Shown: one piece after another, positions 38 to 36,790 of the stretch
Numbering within the stretch: the first letter of the stretch is position 1
Layout: every line of letters begins with the position of its first letter
Assembly: GCA_052327205.1 (NCBI GenBank)
Contig: CM126204.1
Span: 28,458,001 to 28,522,000 of the forward strand
Length of the DNA: 64,000 nt
Source: Somniosus microcephalus
Lineage: Eukaryota
Reading direction: 5' to 3'
Notes under the pieces: generated by a model
Seen by the model: the letters and a program-made list of their open reading frames with translations, nothing else
What the model was told of the DNA's origin: nothing
The model's database searches: none
Position numbers and translations under genes: made by a program

Positions 38-250
38 CTGAGAAGAACGTGCATTTATAGAACACTTTCACAACCTCAGGGCAACCCAGGGTATAACAGT
101 CAATTAATTACTTTTTAAGTGTAGTGTTGTTTTAATGTGGAAATACAGCAACCAATTTGCACACAGCAAGGTCCCACAAATAGTAATGAGCTAAAATAAC
201 CAGATGAGCTGTTTTTAGTAGTGTTGGTTGAGAAATAAATGTTGGTCATG
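38..250 (-). mobile_element. Degenerate 3' part of a Deu-domain SINE (SacSINE1/AmnSINE-like)
   Basis: Aligns by eye to copies at 39270-39720 and 61773-62214 (ccaatttgcacacagcaaggtcccacaaa; tgcatttata tail). Confidence 0.7.
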
Positions 251-2918: not shown

Positions 2919-3185
2919 TATTACACTAGTGGCCGTAATTCTATTTATTTCACAAGTACAACAGACCCATTATTGGAATTCAGTAGTAAATTGAAACCGT
3001 ACACGGAAGTAAATTAATAACTAAGAAATGTAAATTCCTGCAACACTGGCATTTAGAGAAGTACTGATTTTCTTACTGATGTCCCTCTGCCCCTCAGTCT
3101 TCCCCCAGCATATCTAAATAGATTTCAAGAATGGTGTAGAAAAATAAGAGAAATAGTAAGATTTAATTAATGCTGTTTTACTTAC

Positions 3186-3335
3186 ATAACTGAAGCATCT
3201 CCAGAATGAATCAATAAATTCAGGACACTTCTGTAGTATCAAAATGATGAACCATTCGATTAAGTGTTTTACAGATGCCTGATTATCACTCAAACCAGAT
3301 TGATAAACAGTTTCAATGATGGTGCTCAGAAAAAT
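3186..3335 (-). CDS. TARBP1: TARBP1 coding exon (150 nt): IFLSTIIETVYQSGLSDNQASVKHLIEWFIILILQKCPEFIDSFWRCFSY
   Basis: Not in the ORF track; read manually. ttccacag|ATT acceptor and TAT|gtaagt donor. Confidence 0.94.
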
Positions 3336-3841
3336 CTGTGGAACAGATTGATACAGTTTTAGTGCAAGAATATGGGCACTATGTCAATTAGATGATGCCA
3401 GCTAATGTGCCACAGGCGGCCGCAACCTGAAAGTAAACTTGTTTGGGGATCATTAAAGACCTGGTAGAAAAGGGTTTAATGGCCATTGACCCAAGTGAAT
3501 CTCAACAAATTTACTTTGGGTTGAATTTTTAAATTCAGCACAAGCAATCCTCCGATAAAGTATTTACTATGCATCACAATTATGTTTGTATTTCAATGTG
3601 TAAACGCCATAGAGTGATCAGCGCTATCTCTTCCAACAATCAGAACTACCAGAGAAACAATCGACAATCCAGAGTCCGGAAAGTGGTTTAATCCCCAAAT
3701 GGGGAATGGGCTATTGGAGAAATAAAAAGCCTTGGTTTCAGATACTAACATTTTGAAAGATTAAAACAACAACTTCACGGCTAATTACTTTTGGTGCCCT
3801 TGTGAATGTAAAATGCAGTCGCTAGCTTATAATAGTTCTAC

Positions 3842-3952
3842 CTGGTCCATTTGAGGAAGAAGTACAAGTAGCGTCTGCCAAATTCTGTTCTTTAGTCGAT
3901 GCAGCATGGAGTTCACATAATATCGGCCCTTGGCATTCCTCAGCTCTCCGTC
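3842..3952 (-). CDS. TARBP1: TARBP1 coding exon (111 nt): [37 protein letters not shown]
   Basis: ttcacag|GAC acceptor and CAG|gtagaa donor; strong match to the human peptide. Confidence 0.94.
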
Positions 3953-4206
3953 CTGTGAATAGGTGAAATAGTGATAAGAGGCAGATGCTGAAGAGGTACT
4001 GATTAGAAATTCTGGCGTGAAATCCAAAAAAGATAAGCAATATGATTTTGTTCAAATACGTGCTGAACACTGGCTAAACACCCCTTCCAAAAATAAAATC
4101 CCACATTCAACAGGCATCATTGTAAATAGACTTGCAATTTGGAACATTCCTTTTGATCAAATTCACTCCTAAATAGCAAGTTCTGAAAATACACAGCATT
4201 ATGTAA

Positions 4207-6556
4207 CGAGAAAGGATTAATTAGCAATCTTGTTGTAAGAGGCCCCTTGGGTCGGAGCGATCATAATATGATCGAATTCTTCATTAAGATGGAGAATGAA
4301 GTAGTTGACTCGGAGACTAGGGTCCTCAATTTAAATAAAGGAAACTATGATGGTCTGAGGAGCGAGTTGGGTAGGATTGATTGGGGAATGGCACTCAAAG
4401 GGTTGACGGTGGATAGGCAATGGCAAACATTCAAAGACCGAATGCATGAACTACAGAATTTGTTCATCCCAGTTTGGCATAAAAATAAAACAAAAAAGGT
4501 GACCCAACCGTGGCTAACAAGGGAAATTAGGGATAGCATAAGGTCCAAGGAGAGGGCATATAAATTGGCCAGAAAAAGCAATAATCCTGAGGATTGGGAG
4601 CAGTTTAGGATTCAACAAAGGAGGACAAAGGGATTAATTAAGAAAGGGAAAATAGAATATGAGAGTAAGCTTGCAGAGAACATAAAAACTGACTGTAAAA
4701 GCTTTTATAGATACGTGAAGAGAAAAAGATTGGTGAAGTCAAGCGTAGGTCCCTTGCAGTCAGAATTGGGGGAATTTATAATGGGGAACAAAGAAATGGC
4801 AGACCAACTAAATACATATTTTGGTTCTGTCTTCACAAAGGAGGACACAAATAACCTCCCAGAGATGCCGGGGAACATAGGGGTCTGATGAAAGGGTGGA
4901 ACTGAAAGAAATCAGTATTTGTAGGGAAATGGTGTTAGGAAAATTGATGGGACTGAAGGCCGATAAATCCCCAGGGCCTGATAATCTACATCCCAGGGTA
5001 CTTAAGGAAGTGGCCCTAGAAATAGTAGATGCATTGCTGGTCATCTTCCAGAACTCGATAGACTCTGGAACGGTACCCATGGATTGGCGGGTAGCTAATG
5101 TTACCCCACTATTCAAAAAAGGTGGTAGAGAAAAGGCGGGGAATTATAGACCGGTAAGTTTGACATCGGTAGTGGGGAAAATGCTAGAGTCCATTATAAA
5201 AGATGTAATAGCAGAGCACTTGGAAAGCAGTGACTGGATCGGACAAAGTCAACATGGATTTACAAAAGGTAAATCATGCTTGACTAATCTACTGGAATTT
5301 TTTGAGGATGTAACTGGTAAAATAGATAAGGGAGAACCAGTGGATGTAGTGTATTTGGACTTTCAGAAGGCTTTCGATAAAGGTCCCGCATAAGAGATTA
5401 GCGTGCAAAATTAAGGCACATGGGATTGGGGGCAAGGTATTGACTTGGATAGAGAACTGGTTGGCGGACAGAAAGCAAAGAGTTGGAATAAACGGGTCGT
5501 TTTCCGAGTGGCAGGCAGTGACTAGTGGGGTACCGCAAGGATCGGTCCTAGGACCCCAGTTGTTCACAATATATATTAATGATCTGGACGAGGGAATTGG
5601 ATGTAATATCTCCAAATTTGCAGACGACACAAAGCTGGGGGGGGGGGGGGGGGGGGGGAGGGTATGCTGTGAGGAGGATGTCGTGAAACTCCAGCACGAT
5701 TTGGACAGGTTGGGTGATTGGGCAGAAACATGGCAAATGCACTATAATGTGGATAAATGTGAGGTTATCCACTTTGGTGGCAAAAACAGGAAGGCAGATT
5801 ATTTGAATGGTAATAGATTGGGAGAAGGGGAAGTGCAAAGAGACCTGGGTGTTCTTGTACACCAGTCACTGAAGGTAAGCATGCAGGTGCAGCAGGCGGT
5901 TAAGAAGGCAAATGGTATGTTGGCCTTCGTAGCAAGAGGGTTCGAGTACAAGAACAAGGATGTCTTGCTGCAGTTGTACAGGGCCTTGGTGAGACCACAC
6001 CTTGAGTATTGTGTGCAGTTTTGGTCGCCTTACCTGAGGAAGGACGTTCTTGCCATGGAAGGAGTGCAGCGAAGATTCACCAGGCTGATACCTGGGATGG
6101 CAGGAATGACGTATGAGGAGAGATTGTGTCGATTGGGCTTATACTCACTGGAGTTTAGAAGATTGAGAGGGGATCTCATCGAAACCTATAAAATTCTGTC
6201 AGGCCTGGACAGACTAGATACAGGAAGGATGTTTCTGATGGCTGGGGCGTCCAGAACCAGGGGTCATAGTCTAAGGATAAGGGGTAAGCCATTTAGGACT
6301 GAAATGAGGAGGAATTTCTTCACCCAGAGAGTGGTGAACCTGTGGAATTCTCTGCCACAGAGGGCGGTGGAGGCCAGTTCATTAAGTATATTCAAGAAAG
6401 AGTTGGATATATTTCTTAAGGCTAAAGGGATGAAGGGATACGGGGAGAAGGCAGGGACTGGGTACTGAATTTGGATGATCAGCCATGATCTCATTGAATG
6501 GCGGAGCAGGCTCGAAGGGCCGAATGGCCTACTCCTGCTCCTATCTTCTATGTATC
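4207..6556 (+). mobile_element. 5'-truncated young CR1 LINE (end of APE, RT, 3' UTR), with a stop and a frameshift
   Basis: ORFs 4247-4888, 4896-5393 and 5440-6468 contain [25 protein letters not shown] and FADDT. CR1 tail present; flanked by TATGTAA repeats (4200-4206, 6557-6563). Confidence 0.95.
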
Positions 6557-13420: not shown

Positions 13421-13610
13421 CTGTAAACCTGAAATAAAGACAGAAAATGATGGAAATGTACAGAAGGTTTGTAGGCGTCTGAAAACAGAAGATAGGTTAA
13501 CATTTCAAGGAGAGACTCTTCATCAGACCTGGTGAAAGGTTTCTACCCAAAATATGAATTTTTTATTATTAAGATGCCTATGAGCTTATGTATATACACA
13601 CTTTTTAAAA
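13421..13610. mobile_element. Degenerate inverted pair of Penelope-type termini with two decayed hammerhead motifs
   Basis: 13421-13530 resembles 32765-32885 (ctgaaataaa.acagaaaatg..gttaac.tttca..cttcatcag). It is followed by a more decayed inverted copy (ctggtgaaagg..cccaaaatatgaa). Confidence 0.55.
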
Positions 13611-22709: not shown

Positions 22710-22971
22710 CTTAGGAATGAGAATCTTCATGCACTGCATTATGGGAAGTACTTGGTCCGACGGAACAATGTTAAGTGCTTCTATACAGGCTTGGAGAGTG
22801 AGCGCTGGATTTTCGACAACAGGTAATGAAAGCTGACAACTCTTGTTGGCTGGACTTTCAGGAGACTGCTCAAATTTGTTCAAAGTGAAATAGACGCAGG
22901 CCCACTGATCATGGACATACTGTGTAGACACCTTTCCCCAGCCCTGAGCTGAAGATCCATCCTCTAAAAGT
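22710..22971 (-). CDS. TARBP1: TARBP1 coding exon (262 nt): LLEDGSSAQGWGKVSTQYVHDQW..MKILIPK
   Basis: gtttag|A acceptor and AAG|gtgagc donor; QGWGK..QY.HDQW motif as in human. Confidence 0.92.
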
Positions 22972-24935
22972 CTAAACAAAAAAAACAAAAAATCTTGTTT
23001 TTTTTAAATCCAGGAGCAGTACAGCACTAACCCAACACTTCACATCAGTGTAAATTATGAAAGGGCAGTGAAATGCAAAGCCATTGTGCAATGTCAACAT
23101 GCAAAAATATTCCGTTCCTTCCATCTTTAAGGTTTCTGCCATGCCTCATACAATCCCCCAACAAAAAATGACAGTAGATGATCGCCTGAGACCATCAAAC
23201 TCATACAAGGGGTTTGAAGCATTGGGGCTTGACACAACTTTACAAAAATGCAGGATAACTGGACTATTCGAAAGACCTCTGCTGCAAATATGCAAGGATA
23301 GAATTTGTGCATCTAGAATTTGTTGTTTCCTTATTCTCAAAATGTCTTCGGGAGAAAGGTAAAAACTAGAATATTAAAATGGTTGACACAGCGAGTAGAA
23401 AGTGTTCACCATAATGAGCAAGATTTGCTGTTTTCATGGAAAAATGGATAAAAAGGGCAGATTTACCCCAAATCATTGCTAAAAATCCCAGAGGGAGCCC
23501 GGTGTCATAAAAATAGGATTACAGTAGATTTAGTCAGTCACTGTAGACCAGTGCACCTAAGGAGCCGAGGTGGATTCTATATCTTGTGCAGCCTCAGAGA
23601 CCACGTGTACTTGTAAAATCAGAAGTGTTTTCATGGTTACAATAATAAATGCCTCAAAGTATTATATTTAAAAAAAATAGCCCTGGATGACAACACATTG
23701 CATCTGATTAAACATCAAAACCATCTGACTTACTAGCCCTTTGAACAACTGTACCAAATTTGGTTGAACTGCGCCAATTCTTCCTCAAGTTATCGCATTT
23801 GCTGACAGCTTTTTGTTATTAAAATTCCAGCTTTCTGATTGATGAAGCTTTAAAAAAAATGAATTTGCAGCAGATGGGATAATACTTTGAAATGCATTTG
23901 AAAGCTGCAAGCTTCAATGACAAGAGCAGTCATTGTGTGATTACATTAATTGCAAGCATACTCTTTGTTTATTAATAGATTGCATTTTTGTTATTTAACA
24001 TGGCAATCCATTCTGGCAAGTGTTGTCTGGTGGGTTAACAACTTGACATATTTATTTCTGGTAAGGTAAAATAAAGTGCTGTTGGCATTAACTCAGCATT
24101 CACATGCAATTTGGATGATTATTATGGACAGAATAATAATGTTCTAGGAATACTTAATTATAAAAAGAGAACACGGTTGATTTCATATTCAGGCATGGTT
24201 TTACTAAAACCTCAGATTCTGATTAGCTGGCCGGTCATCGGTTCAACTGAAAACATCTGGTTGGCAGAACGAGTCAACACAAGATTCCTCGCTTACCTTC
24301 TTTTGGTTTTTGTGGCATTCCCCACTCAAGAATGCAGGCAAGGAGCTTGTTCCCATGTCACTATTTATGCTGCCCATTTTCGAGCTGTCTGCTGGGACGG
24401 GTATGAACAGACCTCGAGGTGCCCCACCCACCAATTTTCTCCCTCTTCATATGGGGAAAGTGCCTGGCCTTCACTCGGCACCTCCCCAATATCATGGCCG
24501 GAGTTGGACCTGCCAAGGTTTGAACAATACGCTCCAAATTTCTGAGCGTCAACAAAAATTATCGAGGCAGAGAAACAAATAAATGCCAAGACTGATTGCT
24601 TTTAATATCACATGGACCGCTCTCCCAAACCTAAATCTAGTTATGGTTTCGTTTTCTTTCCAGAACCAGTACAGCTGTTATTTCAGTCTTTCTATTTGGA
24701 CATCTCCCAATCAGAGTCAGAAAGGACATTAATCCAAGCTGGTCATCAGGGAGGTATTAACTTACACGTCTTATAGCTGGTGTCAGCTGTGCCGCTTCCT
24801 GGCAAGTTTGGAGATCTGAAATTCAAGCCAACATGGAGCTGGAAAAATTAAATTGCAAGTAACGTCCATTAGAGCTTTTTTTTTTTTAAGTAGGTAGAAT
24901 AGTAATCCTTGGATGGATGAGTACGTTACACTGAA

Positions 24936-24972
24936 AGTACTGATGAAAGGTCATCGACCTGAAACGTTAACT
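24936..24972 (+). ncRNA. Minimal type I hammerhead ribozyme motif
   Basis: AGTA CTGATGA A AGGTC-ATC-GACCT GAAA CG TT AACT: intact CUGAUGA/GAAA/UH core, 5-bp stem II and ACGU palindromic stem III; stem I imperfect. Confidence 0.7.
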
Positions 24973-25036
24973 CTGTTTCTCTCTTCACAGATGCTGCTTG
25001 ACAGACTGAGTATTTCCACCATTTTCTGTTTTTGTG
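24942..25036 (+). mobile_element. 95-nt Penelope-terminus-derived insert carrying a minimal hammerhead ribozyme motif
   Basis: Perfect 14-bp TSD ACACTGAAAGTACT (24928-24941, 25037-25050); the insert matches the reverse complement of 32785-32875. Confidence 0.85.
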
Positions 25037-25175
25037 ACACTGAAAGTACTCCCCCCTTTCTTTGTGAATTTTTGAGCTTAATCTCTAATACTTACTAGAA
25101 ATTTTTAATATTCACACTGGGCTTCCCAGCACAACAGTTTCACATTTTAAATATTAAATGTCTCGCATTACTTAC

Positions 25176-25369
25176 CCATTGTCTTGCTTACTGCAGAGAG
25201 GTTTCTCAAGATTCTGGTTGAAGGGACCAATTAAAACCGATCTGACCAGTGTCTTGACAGCATCAAGGGAGTCAAGCTGCAGCTCTGGATACTGGGCAGT
25301 AATCTCGCAAACCCAAGCTAAAGAAGCCCTAGCAACCACCATTTGGATCTGTCGTCCTAGCTTTATGAC
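25176..25369 (-). CDS. TARBP1: TARBP1 coding exon (194 nt): VIKLGRQIQMVVARASLAWVCE..PELQLDSL..QDNG
   Basis: tgtcacag|GTC acceptor and GG|gtaagt donor; the PELQLDSL motif is shared with human. Confidence 0.9.
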
Positions 25370-25643
25370 CTGTGACACAGAACATATGAATTGTTGTACC
25401 ATCAGCTTAACTGTACAACTTTTATAGGTGTTCAGATTTCATGATTTTTTTCATGTTGGATAATAGCAACAAATTTAAACACAATGCACGTTAAATTTAT
25501 ATAACTTTAGAAAACTTCATTTTAGTAAATGCACAAATTAATTATTAACAAAGTTTAATAACAATTTGCATTTATATAGCATATTTAATGTAAAAAGTAC
25601 CAAGGAGGGCGTCCAAACCAATACTTTGTCTTAGAGCTCTTAA

Positions 25644-31390: not shown

Positions 31391-32844
31391 GGTGAAAACT
31401 GCAAGAATAAAGCATACTCAGCTTCCGGTGCCACCCAGGAAAAGCAGATAACCGCGCCCAAATCTGGAGTTGCTCTCCTCTCCTCTCCTCCCCTCCCCAG
31501 TGTCTCCTCATCCAAAACTAGTTCCCAGACTAGACCATGAGCCCTATCTGCGAGTCTTGGAAAACTTGCCAGATTCCCTAGTCAGTTCTCCATAAAGTCC
31601 AAGAGGATCAGTGATCACTAACAGCTGATCTCCTGGCTTCCAGCATTCAACCATACTGCTCAAAATAACAGATGCCATCTTGGCAAAAGTGCTAATCCTG
31701 TTTGCAGGCTAGCTCACCAAGCTCCCACTTTGTTTCAGGAGTTCCGCAAATATAGAATTGAGCACGGGATCTCCTTCAGCTTGGAAATGTAAATTCTCAG
31801 GCAGAACACTGGATAAAGATTGGTTTATTTGAACCCCATGGTTTCTCTGTTCCTGCGCCCCTTTAAAATTGTACCATTTAGTTTATACTGCCTCTCGTAA
31901 TTCTTCCTCCCAAAATGCATCACTTCACACATTGCCTAATATCCTACTCAAACTCATTCTTTCTCGGGATCTCAAAACTGTGGAGCTCTTTATCTCCCTC
32001 AATTTTTATTTTCTCCTATTCAGCTTTCTAAAATCCAAACGCAACACCACATTATTATTTTCTCCTCTCTGACTTACCTGGTCTTCTCGTTTACCCTCGT
32101 CAACTTTGGTGGTGTCTTGCACTATGGTACTTCATTGTTAATTATGATATCACCCTAAAATAGTTATCCATAAAATGTTAGATTGCAAAAGTTGCCCTTG
32201 TCTAGTGTCAATGGCCAGTTTGAAATAGTTACCATTGTGAATTGCAGTAGTTGGGTTGACTGTACAGTGATGCGTTATACCAGAAATACTTGAAGGGAAA
32301 AAAAATACAGGGCTTTGGGGGGGAAGAAGCTCTACCAAAGAGCTGGCACATGCCGACTGACCACCTTCTGCGCTGTAGCGTACTAGGATATCTGTACTTT
32401 TATGCATCTGTCGATTATATGTTGAAATTAATAAGTAGCTTTTAAGATTTGCAAGTGAAATATTTGGCGAGAGTGTAATTTGGCTGCCAAACGTGTTCAA
32501 AGGCTTTGATCAAACAATACTAGTTTTATTAAAGTATTCGGTCAAGGTGTTCTCCAGAAATGTCACTGAATTTTTCACAAGGGGAGAAAAAGGAGGGTGA
32601 CAGATGAAGAAGTTAATTATGTGGAAGAAAATTAACATGGAAAGTTTAATCAAGGCAATTATCCATACCAAAATAAAAATGTGGGAATAAAAATCAGTCA
32701 ACGTTAGAAGTTAATGTTATCAGTCTCCAAACACATGGCATTTATACAAAAGCAAAATACCGCGGATGCTGGAAATCTGAAATAAAAACAGAAAATGCTG
32801 GAAATACTCAGCAGGTCAGGCAGCATCTGTGGAGAGAGAAACAG

Positions 32845-32881
32845 AGTTAACGTTTCAGGTCGATGACCCTTCATCAGAACT
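32845..32881 (-). ncRNA. Minimal type I hammerhead ribozyme motif in the Penelope terminus
   Basis: Minus strand AGTT CTGATGA A GGGTC-ATC-GACCT GAAA CG TT AACT: stem I AGUU/AACU, stem II, palindromic ACGU stem III and UH site. Confidence 0.78.
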
Positions 32882-33613
32882 GGAAAAAGTTAGAGAGGCA
32901 ACAGATTTTTAAGCAAGTGCAGGGACAGGGAAAGGGGGGGGGGGGGGGGAGGGGGAAGAAAGAACAAAGGGAAGGTCTGAGATAGGATGGAAGGCAGGAG
33001 ATTAAAAGACAAAAAGGGATGATGTTGTAAGGCAAAAGGAGATGGTAATGGGACAAGGTAAGAAACAAAAGATGAGTCTAGATAAGGTGTAAATGGGAAT
33101 GGCAGAATCTTCAATAACTGCTATGTGAAACAAAGAATAGGGGTCGAGGTTACGGTCTAAAATTGCTGAACTTTATGTGGAGTCCAGAAGGCTGTAAAGT
33201 GCCTATTCAAAAGATGAGGAGCTGTTCCTCAAGCTTATGTTGAGCTTCGTTGGAACAGTGCAAGAGGCCAAGGACGGAGAGGTCACAGTGGGAGTGGAGC
33301 GGAGAATTAAAGCGACAGGTGACCGGAAGCTTATGGGCTGAACGGAGGTATTCCGCAAAGCAGTCACCTAATCTGCGTTTGGTCTCCCCAATGTAGAGGA
33401 GACCGCATCGTGAACGGCAAATGCAGTATACTAACACTGCAAGTACAAGTAAATCGCTGTTTCACCTGTGTTTGGAGCCCTGGACAGTGGGAAGGGAGGA
33501 GGTAAAAGGGCAGGTGTTGCACTTGCATGGAAAAGTGCCGTAGGAAGGGGAAGGGATGTTAGGGGTGATTGAGGAGTGGACCAGGGTGTCGTGGAGGGAA
33601 CGGTCCCTTCGGA

Positions 33614-34070
33614 ATTTTTTTTTAAATTAGTTCACGGGACGTGGGCGTCGCTGGCAAGGCCAGCATTTATTGCCCATCTCTACTTGCCCTTGAAAAGGTG
33701 GTGGTGGTGAGCTGCCTTCTTGAACCGCTGTAGTCAGTGTGGTGCTGTAACGGTTTGGTACAACTGAGTGGCTTGCTAGGCCATTTCAGAGGGCAGTTAA
33801 AAGAGTGAACCACATTGCTGTGGGTCTGGAGTCACATACAGGCCAGATTGGGTAAGGACGGCAGATTTCCTTCCCTGAAGGACATTAATGAACCAGATGG
33901 GTTTTTACAACAATCCGGAAGTTTCATGGTCACCATTATTGATACTGGCTTTTTATTCCAGATTTATTTAATTAACTGAATTTAAATTCCCCAGCTGCCG
34001 TGGTGGGATTTGAACTCACGTCCAGGCCTCTGGATTACTAGACCAGTAACATAACCACTATGCTACCGTT
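33614..34070 (-). mobile_element. tRNA-derived SINE (MetaSINE-like) inserted in the Penelope element
   Basis: Head GGTAGCATAGTGGTTATG..GAGTTCAAATCCC; centre GTAAAAACCCATCTGGTTCATTAATGTCCTTCAGGGAAGGAAATCTGCC; tail GATGGGCAATAAATGCTGGCCTTGCCAGCGACGCCCAC plus poly(A). Confidence 0.8.
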
Positions 34071-34687
34071 TCCGTTAGCATTGCTGAAAGGAGAGGGGAG
34101 GGGAAGATGCGTTTGGTGGTGGGATCACACTAGAGGTGGCGGAAAATGATCTGTTGAATGTGGAGGCGGGTGGGGTGAAAGGGGAGGACAAGGGGAACCC
34201 TGTCGTGGTGCTGGAAGGGAGTGGAAGGGGAAGGGGTGGGGCGAGAGCAGAAGTGCAGGAAATAGAACATACACGGTTGAGGGCCATGTCAACCATGGTA
34301 GAGAGGAATCCTTGCTTGAGTAAAAGGTGGACATATCGGAAGCACTAGTATGGAAGGTGGCATCGTCAGAGCAGATGCGACGGAGAAACTGGGGGAATGG
34401 AATAGAGTCCTTACAGGAAGCGAGGTGGGAGAAAATGTCATCCAGGTAGCTGTGGGAGTCAGTGGACATATAGTGAATGTTTTTCAATAGTCTATCCCCA
34501 GAAATGGAGACAGAGAAGTCGAGGAAGGGAAGGGAAGAGTCTGAGATGGACCATGTGAAGGTCAGGGAAGGGTGGAAATTGGAAGCAAAGTGAATGAAAT
34601 TTTCCAGTTCAGGGCGTGAACGGGAAACGGCATCCGGCATCGATACAGTCATCAATGTACCGAAAAAAGAGGTGAGGGAGGGGACCC

Positions 34688-35164
34688 AGGCTGATACCTG
34701 GGATGGCAGGAATGACGTATGAGGAGAGATTGGGTCGATTGGGCTTGTACTCGCTGGAGTTTAGAAGAATGAGAGGGGATCTCATTGAAACTTATAAAAT
34801 TCTGGCAGGACTAGACAGACTAGATGCAGGGAGGATGTTCCCGGTGGTCAGGGAATCCAGAACCAGGGGTCACAGTCTAAGGATAAGGGGTAGGCGTTTT
34901 AGGACAGAAATGAGGAGGAATTTCTTCACCCAGAGAGTGGTGAACCTGTGGAATTCTCTACCACAGAAGGCAGTAGAGGCCAATTCATTAAATATATTCA
35001 AGAAGGAGTTGGATATATTTCTTAAGGCTAAAGGGATCAAGGGGTATGGGGAGAAAGCAGGTACTGGGTACTGAACTTGGATGATCAGCCATGATCGCAT
35101 TGAATGGCGGAGCAGGCTCGAGGGGCCGAATGGCCTACTCCTGCTCCTATCTTCTATGTTTCTA
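34688..35164 (+). mobile_element. Short young CR1 3' insertion
   Basis: ORF 34703-35074 ends GYGEKAGTGY; GACC is repeated at both junctions. Confidence 0.92.
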
Positions 35165-35195: not shown

Positions 35196-36790
35196 CTTTA
35201 TTGAATTTTTTGTGGAGGTAACAAGGAGGGTCGATGAGGGTAGTGCATTTGATGTTGTCTATATGGATTTTAGCAAGGCTTTTGGGTCCCCCATGACAGA
35301 CTGGTCACGAAAGTAAAAGCCCATGGGATCCAAGGCAAAGTGGCAAGTTGGATCCCCAATTGGCTCAGAGGCAGGAAACAAAGGGTAATGGTCGAAGGGT
35401 GTTTTTGTGACTGGAAGGCCGTTTCCAGTGAGGTTCCGCAGGGTTCAGTACTGGGTCCTTTGCTTTTTGTGGTATATATCAATGATTTGGACTTGAATGT
35501 AGGGAGTATGATTAAGAAGTTTGCAGATGATACAAAAATTGGCCATGTGGTTGATGAAGAGGAAAGCTGTAGACTGCAGGAAGATGTCAATGGACTGGTC
35601 AGGTGGGCAGAACAGTGGCAAATGGAATTCAATCAGGAGAAGTGTGAGGTAATGCATTTGTGGAGGGCTAACAAGGCAAGAGAATACACAATAAATGGTA
35701 GGACACTGAGTAGTGTAGAGGAACAAAGGGACCTTGGAGTGCATGTCCACAGATCCCTGAAGGTAGCAGGCCAAGTAGATAAGGTGGTTAAGAAGGCATA
35801 CGGGATACTTGCCTTTATTAGCCGAGGCATAGAATATAAGAGCAGGGAGGATATGCTTGAACTGTATAAAACACTAGTTAGGCAGCAGCTAGAATACTGC
35901 GTACAGTTCTGGTCACCACATTACAGAAAGGATGCGATTGCACGAGAGAGGGTGAAGAGGAGATTTACGAGGGTGGTGCCTGGGCTGGGGAATTTTAGCG
36001 ATGAGGAAAGACTGGATAGGCTGGGGTTGTTTTCTTTGGAACAGAGGAGGCTGAGGGGAGACCTAATTGAGGTATATAAAATGAGGGGCCTAGATAGAGT
36101 GTATAGGAAGAACCCATTTCCCTTAGCAGAGGGGTCAACAAACATGGGGCACAGATTTAAAGTAATTGGTAGGCAGTTTAGAGGGGAATCTGAGGAGAAT
36201 TTTTTTCACCCAGAGGGCGGCGGGGCTCTGGAACTCACTGCCTGAAAGGGTGGTAGAGGCAGAAACCCTCATCACATTTAAAAACTACAGGAAACTCTCT
36301 TTTTACCGGCACCTAAATAACCAGAAATCTCTCTTAACCGGAAAAATTCAGGAGTAGGTTCAGGTAAGTTTTACTTCATATTAGTGGCCGTGTAACTGGG
36401 GTTCCTGGATCTGTGGCCGTGTAACCGGGGTTCCTGCACCTGTTGCCATGCAACAGGGACGCCTGGATCTGTGGCCGTGTAACCGGGGTTCCTGCACCTG
36501 TTGCCATGCAACAGGGACGCCTGGATCTATGGCCGTGTACAGGGCTCTCGTACCTTAGTAAGTATACCTCTCTGTAATCCGGACTTTTTGATCAACCGGC
36601 ACCACGCCGGTCCCATCGGTGCTGGATAAAAAATTTTTTTCCTGTATTTGGATATGCACTTGAAGTGCCGTAACCTACAAGGATATGGACCAAATGCTGG
36701 AATGTGAAATTAGGCTGGATAGCTCTGTCAGCCGGCACGGACAAGATGGGCTGAATGGCCTCCTTCTGTGTTGTAAATTTCTATGATTCT
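35196..36790 (+). mobile_element. CR1 (different subfamily), 5'-truncated and split by a MITE
   Basis: RT ORF 35340-36245 ([15 protein letters not shown]) and CR1 tail ending tttctatgattct. Confidence 0.92.
36288..36644. mobile_element. Tigger-like MITE with an internal 29/58-bp tandem repeat
   Basis: TA|CAGGAAACT...TTTCCTG|TA; 58-bp units at 36413-36470 and 36471-36528. Confidence 0.85.

Follow-up and report, generated by a model that had tools for sequence, protein, structure and literature searches.

Solo terminal repeats, tails and head-to-head palindromes of Penelope elements, as well as the single minimal hammerheads left by truncated copies, have already been described (PMC4209133, PMC8557442, PMC3846280, PMC6765202); the solo pLTRs and the palindromes have been explained by antisense self-priming or by endonuclease resolution (PMC3846280; PMC8557442). 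For PAc, the element of the green anole, two start sites of reverse transcription and a tail are reported, with priming at the target nick (Frangieh 2024, PMC11167929); its binding site is located downstream of the start sites, and ribozyme cleavage is not needed (PMC11167929). In the D. virilis Penelope, transcription is reported to start at 371 and an intron to span 416-491 (Schostak 2008, PMC2377424). The start is placed about 120 nt upstream of the intron end, which coincides with helix I of the hammerhead (PMC2377424, PMC4209133).

The window analyzed here is the whole stretch of 64,000 nt of Somniosus microcephalus DNA. It contains a 95-nt insert (24942..25036, plus strand), a Penelope terminal-repeat segment reaching from the hammerhead to the first family-wide 3' end site, at about +93 to +95. 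Element coordinates are counted from the C of CTGATGA (window 24940), taken as 0, negative values lying upstream. As originally predicted, the insert is flanked by a perfect target-site duplication (TSD) of 14 bp: ACACTGAAAGTACT occurs exactly twice in the window, to the left (24928..24941, plus strand) and, as a second copy, to the right (25037..25050, plus strand), with 95 nt between the two. The TSD extends to 17 bp (left copy 24925-24941) if one mismatch is allowed, and a common 14-mer arose between random flank pairs in 12 of 20,000 trials. The core starts at 24940, and its CT does overlap the left TSD, as had been pointed out; the last six bases of the left TSD match element positions -4..+1 in 5 of 6 places (junction microhomology). 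The proposed resemblance to the Penelope terminus at 32.8 kb amounts to 90 identical bases out of 98 (92%), compared with 32784-32881 on the minus strand.

The insert lies in an intron of TARBP1, antisense to the gene and about 125 nt from the coding exon at 25175..25372 (minus strand), which confirms the host context first assigned to it; the encoded protein is at most 94% identical to shark proteins, and tblastn places the start of the following exon at 22964. An extra exon suspected at 24766-24839 was rejected, since it contains stops in the single frame examined and was not matched by tblastn. Since the insert is antisense to TARBP1, the host pre-mRNA does not carry the ribozyme. The search for an empty site, proposed with the original prediction, covered four sequencing runs, and none was seen; one relative does contain the insert. 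Its contig (22 differences in 446 nt, about 5% diverged) begins within the insert and continues into the right flank, so that the insertion is common to both organisms and old. The flanking contigs of two runs show zero substitutions with respect to the window, and are not independent. The insert is a real, probably inert sequence, with no likely function, and there are good grounds to regard it as a short retro-copy derived from the terminal repeat of a Penelope-type element; several thousand such copies in the genome start no more than a few bases from the 5' edge of the hammerhead.

According to the descriptor of Cervera and De la Pena 2014 (PMC4209133), a minimal type I hammerhead motif can be placed at 24936..24972 (plus strand). 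Helix I would be formed by a 5' arm at 24936-39, derived from the target, and a 3' arm at 24969-72; the core CTGATGA (24940-46) is followed by a bulged A, helix II occupies 24948-52/24956-60 (5 bp), and GAAA (24961-64) is followed by palindromic CG and by TT, the predicted cut falling after 24968. The prediction of a hammerhead stands as far as the core is concerned, CUGANGA...GAAA...UH being present with palindromic 15.2-16.2 and no loop 3, but does not hold for a complete hammerhead: the 5' arm of helix I reads AGTA in place of AGTT, the core-closing pair is an A-A mismatch, and helix I is broken. No match to the Rfam hammerhead models was obtained for the insert, either by gathering score or at E up to 10. 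When dimers of the insert hammerhead or of the parent hammerhead were modelled by cofolding, the active form was in neither case the lowest-energy fold, a modelling result that says nothing on activity. Among 148 copies chosen independently of the core, it is intact in 100, the main family-level variants being located at position 4 (N7) and at the A/G partner of U20. The conserved G10.1-C11.1 pair is replaced by A-U in 83 of the 148 copies and by G-U in 64. Half of the copies carry an upstream ATG inside the hammerhead core, opening a 46-codon frame.

The insert unit, followed by a 38-nt tail, is found again at 32744..32881 (minus strand), where it terminates a longer, decayed Penelope-type copy spanning 32.7-34.7 kb, in which helix I is intact (4 bp). 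The upstream part of this copy (32882..34690, minus strand) is 80-94% identical to a near-full-length one, L061, and contains a pyrimidine-rich 3' UTR, an endonuclease remnant and a reverse transcriptase (RT) remnant, interrupted by other repeats. The motif YIG-ETKR was read by eye in the endonuclease remnant and the motif YIDD in the RT remnant. L061 consists of a terminal repeat (about -192 to +134), an ORF with a likely ATG near +168, coding for RT and then endonuclease, and the repeat again, ending at +95; the direct repeat, of roughly 290 nt and 93% identical, is present at both ends of a 4.1-kb unit, as in a partial-tandem pseudo-LTR. The parent RT matched Pfam RVT_1 with E=0.0017, below the curated cut-off, the endonuclease piece had no match in Pfam, and the RT had none in PDB; some homologues of the parent contain PF00078 and PF26215, and none of them bears a Penelope name. 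The Penelope label is suggested by the anatomy and by the motifs read by eye, library support being weak. Optional tails of 30-40 nt, inverted 5' copies and variable TSDs of 9-17 bp, all Penelope-like features, are found as well, and the Penelope origin and minimal-hammerhead motif claimed for the insert are supported.

Other features were observed in the element and around it. A splice-acceptor-like motif directly precedes the likely ORF ATG at +140..+170 (L061 and L162-L231); further acceptor-like motifs are found at -2 and +51, and no good donor was seen within the unit. In the window, 13436-13531 (minus strand) holds an older, diverged relative of the unit, apparently also starting at about -5. 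A decayed LINE-like RT fragment, which we take to be CR1/L2-like, is located at 35200-36290 (plus strand), upstream of the long Penelope copy, as is a short tandem repeat of about 55-60 nt at 36390-36545.

Copies were drawn from the genome by using exact-pattern anchors located downstream of the hammerhead, i.e. without selecting on the hammerhead itself. Three sets were obtained, with anchors at +45..87 (first 90 of 7,741 matches, 88 arms), at +83..117 (first 70 of 9,116 matches) and at the ORF junction, +140..170 (86 matches, 70 fetched, 69 distinct); sets 1 and 2 are the first listed matches, from one contig, the ORF-junction set being the exception. Among the copies reaching +5, the 5' end fell within -6..+5 in 31 of 70 (one of the 31 being an internal deletion mis-called as an end), 25 of 51 and 10 of 28, respectively, as compared to a background of 4-7% per 12 nt elsewhere. 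After pooling sets 1 and 2 and dropping 7 same-place or second arms, 52 of 114 ends were in this interval (p about 5e-33), with a mode at -4 to -2, end calls including 1-5 nt of microhomology. An early sample of the first 30 matches had given 22 of 30, with a bias due to the query. Exact counts over the whole genome are 18,905 from -3, 11,345 from -8 and 9,353 from -11, and near-exact copies starting at -7..-3 are estimated at 3,000-5,000. None of 227 5' ends was located at the predicted cleavage product (+29), and hammerhead-cleaved RNA was rejected as a template on this basis. Random truncation points had been named in advance as the mark of plain Penelope debris; the ends pile up, instead, at the 5' edge of the hammerhead.

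The 3' ends cluster at two sites, separated by about 38 nt: 49 of 88 at +89..105 (about +95) and 30 of 88 at +129..135 (about +133). TSDs were found for 20 of 45 non-inverted short copies, 5 of them representing one amplified insertion, versus 3 of 220 shuffled pairs. Short duplications derived from the -3..+9 segment are common at 5' junctions (L059, L091, L134, L183, L225 and others), as if the cDNA end had been re-copied after run-off, by enzyme re-alignment or by templated end-joining.

Two other clusters of ends were rejected. The one at +25 results from a later inverted-repeat element in AACGTT, the upstream part being found in 4 of 6 cases. This insertion, 1.8-4.3 kb long, interrupts the AACGTT of the hammerhead dimer helix in L156, L157, L158 and L160 and, by junction, in L130 and L277; it ends in the short inverted GG.C..ATTTTC ... 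GAAAAT..CC, with a 2-5 nt duplication, its junction occurs in 6 of 88 arms, and it looks like a DNA-type repeat with a strong target preference for AACGTT. The cluster near -195 is partly due to an internal duplication and to divergence of the reference, so that end positions of long copies are lower bounds. A short insertion with a 13-bp TSD, amplified as a passenger in another repeat, makes up 7 of the first 30 matches (L003, L004, L009, L016, L018, L024, L026). In four other copies (L006, L007, L037, L129) the short unit lies in common flanks at several loci, possibly as a second passenger or composite, and the adjoining sequence is presumably SINE-like.

Within the ORF-junction set, 27 of 69 copies are jump tandems, composed of a first cDNA running back from +95/+133, a jump onto the ORF and a second pass. 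The landing point is between +173 and +340 in 24 of the 27; the templates thus run on into the ORF, and copying can start near the front of the RNA. A single flanking TSD was recognized by eye around 3 tandems. The first pass ends within -6..+5 in 8 of the 27 (another, at -8, was not counted), and the second pass of these 8 ends within the same interval in 6, ran past it in none and ended earlier in 2; this concordance rests on 6 cases, 6 of 6 to be compared with 4 of 22 for the other ORF-junction copies stopping there (Fisher 0.0006). Head-to-head pairs with near-palindromic junctions are also common; classed by hand, they number 34 unique ones (38 rows, 4 duplicates dropped). When both arms reach +5 (n=18), both stop in 14 pairs, both pass in 3, and 1 is mixed (p=0.005). 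In these two tests, both of small sample size, stops are concordant within an insertion; stopping therefore appears to depend on the individual template molecule, which is what a physical 5' end would produce. The alternative description of the insert as an extremely 5'-truncated Penelope insertion misses this fixed end site, used twice within single insertions. One tandem, L213, carries a run of 10 A where it jumps from ORF +989 to -5. The enzyme may have landed there on the end of a polyadenylated RNA, but upstream of the 10-A filler a poly(A) signal was not seen.

A second hammerhead-bearing Penelope-type family was identified, with at least 19,570 copies by exact anchors (L061, inside the ORF; L293; L302-L381). 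Its hammerhead features GAAA-GC-TT and a TCAC/GTGA helix I, head-to-head pairs are very frequent, and there are two 3' ends, about 37 nt apart. The 5' ends again pile up, 17 of 52 being located in -10..+7 versus 5% per 18 nt (p=3e-10), with an edge at -8/-7, where the CA of TCCACTTC lies. Ten of 18 ends (8 of 16 without two mis-calls) are located at or beyond -6, compared to 4 of 44 in family 1; the family 2 sample is small, 18 short arms of which 2 are mis-calls of longer copies, and its distribution broader. The two families agree in the start of helix I, at -4, but an AG acceptor is absent from this place in family 2.

The following scheme is proposed for what is observed, namely the TSD, the 5' pile-up, the two 3' sites, the repeat stops, the common sequence pool of short and long copies and the second family. 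The element's own RT would prime at a cut in the target and enter the parent RNA at an internal site, about 95 nt from its front; it would run off where the RNA ends, at a fixed 5' position that is probably the transcription start. The cDNA would then be joined to the target by microhomology, as in the insert at 24942-25036; alternatively, it could be fused to a second cDNA in head-to-head orientation, or return to the ORF and be extended in a second pass. By analogy with PAc, the scheme would include priming at the target nick, two internal starts and a downstream binding site, with no need for ribozyme cleavage.

That the 5' stop is a physical RNA end can be inferred with reasonable confidence. 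The favoured origin for such an end is transcription starting at the CA of TCCAGTTC, a reading given a little less than an even chance; that a 5' exonuclease trims the RNA until it meets a hammerhead-protein complex protected from it appears doubtful. Both family edges fall on the CA of a TCCA(G/C)TTC motif, which we take to resemble the initiator consensus. The edge follows the CA motif and not helix I or the AG, which favours a transcription start over a splice acceptor or a helix edge, in a two-family comparison made after seeing family 1. The motif occurs 10 times in 436 nt of the pyrimidine-rich element, so that a single match is weak evidence. No clear cap signature was found, with one single extra G among TSD-defined junctions. 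Read by eye, the position preceding A(-4), where it is not occupied by C, holds A in 11 cases, T in 5 and G in 5, and an excess of G at -4 (15 of 28 non-A, again by eye) can be put down in part to short local duplications. In the assembled contigs of organisms A and C, 4 of 7 listed opposite-strand joints have an arm at -3/-2, which is a hint only.

A spliced template was also considered. Family 1 has a splice-acceptor-like AG at the place homologous to the D. virilis intron end, which could, by this analogy, be a splice acceptor and count against a transcription start there. No shared upstream exon was found in 119 short arms, and the spliced template was rejected: the sense matches fell on loci holding inverted copies, with no recurrent upstream exon.

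If the stop were not an RNA end, the RNA could continue upstream, and in roughly 40% of passes the enzyme would stall, or the intermediate be cut, at this site. Such a roadblock might consist of a splicing factor or other bound protein, of a weak hybrid at a U-run or of a cut by a site-specific endonuclease, variants that even taken jointly are improbable. The fraction of stops is indeed alike in the ORF-junction set and in the other two (10/28 vs 25/51 and 31/70; Fisher 0.34 and 0.50), as a fixed probability per pass would give, and a motif made of branch-point, pyrimidine tract and AG ends at -3 in family 1. A stop decided at each pass is, however, at odds with the concordance within single insertions (6/6 tandems; 17/18 pairs), and a structural block would be expected at the 3' edge of the fold (+32), not at the 5' edge. 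Moreover, the acceptor-like site at +51 has no peak (2/62 and 2/42 in +42..53), and the family 2 pile-up exists without an AG. Run-off at an RNA end is preferred.

The unit could, instead, be a self-propagating non-autonomous element, retrozyme or SINE-like, mobilised in trans, as the original prediction offered for its first option. The occurrence of copies in two discrete lengths (about 100 and 138 nt), the TSDs and a copy number in the thousands agree with this, and animal retrozymes are described as deriving from Penelope terminal repeats, with many monomers (Li et al. 2026). A comparison of 80 short with 80 long copies, based on distance permutation rather than on a phylogenetic tree, gave no diagnostic variants and no divergence (p=0.78), the proportions found at nine common polymorphic sites being the same (A8/G8 45:35 vs 46:36). 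With no separate lineage, no tandem array or tandem unit at the insert site, no end at the cleavage site among the 227, and a short unit devoid of sequence beyond +134, where the protein-binding site would lie by analogy with PAc, this possibility is largely refuted and given very little probability.

Equally hard to sustain is the view that copies derive from an antisense template by self-priming, the -4 end being a start and not a stop, as proposed for the head-to-head Penelope palindromes of a rotifer (Arkhipova 2013, PMC3846280). The 34 unique head-to-head pairs, with their near-palindromic junctions, are in line with it. PAc, however, is reported to start in vitro on sense RNA, at two tail sites, and to extend both strands (PMC11167929); solo copies show microhomology at the -4 end, as 5' junctions do, and the two-pass direct tandems are left unexplained. 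Plain random truncation, with the hammerhead start due to coincidence or to the reader's selection, is scarcely credible, being refuted for the class by the about 8-fold excess in one 12-nt interval, in samples chosen without the hammerhead and again in family 2, even if 5' ends outside the peak are evenly spread, any single copy could be random, and the insert at 24942-25036 itself has about a 1 in 8 chance of being so (6% vs 46%).

The insert likely belongs, then, to a non-random class recording where the RNA of the element begins. In their thousands, the genomic copies seem to preserve a single RNA 5' end together with the behaviour of the enzyme there; a base-resolution prediction of this end follows from the copy ends, and the fixed start point may show how Penelope elements copy themselves. 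Run-off would also provide a simple origin for many single minimal hammerheads in animal genomes, without self-replicating ribozyme elements.

In LTR retroelements, minus-strand strong-stop DNA is synthesized from an internal start near the RNA 5' end, runs off after about 100-140 nt and jumps template. The shark copies may work in the same way. Strong-stop DNA, in contrast, is tRNA-primed, whereas shark Penelope copies are target-primed and integrate directly, with no integrase or true LTR, and the in-register transfer step is conjectural. Tentatively, with transcription starting at the 5' edge of the hammerhead and the enzyme entering 95 or 133 nt in and running off the RNA 5' end, pseudo-LTRs could be regenerated by what would normally be a scarless in-register transfer of the short cDNA to the identical repeat at the RNA 3' end; if true, this would answer how they are restored, and an enzyme that is telomerase-related and target-primed would be seen to carry out strand transfer. 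Failed transfers would then account for the solo inserts, the head-to-head pairs and the two-pass tandems, a reading that, taken as a whole, is speculative.

The insert shares with the min-HHR of metazoan Penelope pseudo-LTRs the CUGANGA core and the bulged base before helix II, and its family has the same lack of loop 3, palindromic 15.2-16.2 and short helix I (PMC4209133). In both cases thousands of single dispersed motifs are present, ascribed to truncated elements (PMC4209133). The first helix II pair is G-C in the min-HHR and A-U or G-U in the shark family; helix I of the insert, unlike that of the min-HHR, is target-derived and mismatched, and the relevant sections of PMC4209133 report no fixed 5' boundary for single motifs.

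With PAc/Poseidon the shark family has in common two 3' end sites 30-40 nt apart, defining a tail, the hammerhead just upstream, an ORF running past the start sites and no sign of cleaved RNA as a template (PMC11167929). The PAc ORF starts at helix II, whereas an ATG at about +168 is likely in the shark family, and the main text on PAc reports no fixed 5' stop or second-pass jumps (PMC11167929). In the open literature, neither a fixed run-off site at the 5' end nor concordance between two passes was found to be reported.

The non-LTR retrozymes of animals (Li et al. 2026, bioRxiv 10.64898/2026.07.22.740005) resemble the insert in their origin from Penelope terminal repeats, type I hammerhead, absence of coding capacity and many monomers. 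They are defined by two or more tandem hammerhead units (Li et al. 2026), whereas the insert is a single TSD-flanked copy: as regards the retrozyme features, it consists of one unit instead of a tandem, does not end at the cleavage site and belongs to no separate lineage. Closest in appearance are the solo pLTRs and head-to-head Penelope insertions (Arkhipova 2013, PMC3846280; Craig 2021, PMC8557442), where solo terminal repeats, TSDs, microhomology junctions, inverted 5' copies and an optional tail are likewise found. Those are described as variably truncated (PMC3846280, PMC8557442), whereas the shark 5' ends are fixed, and concordant within an insertion.
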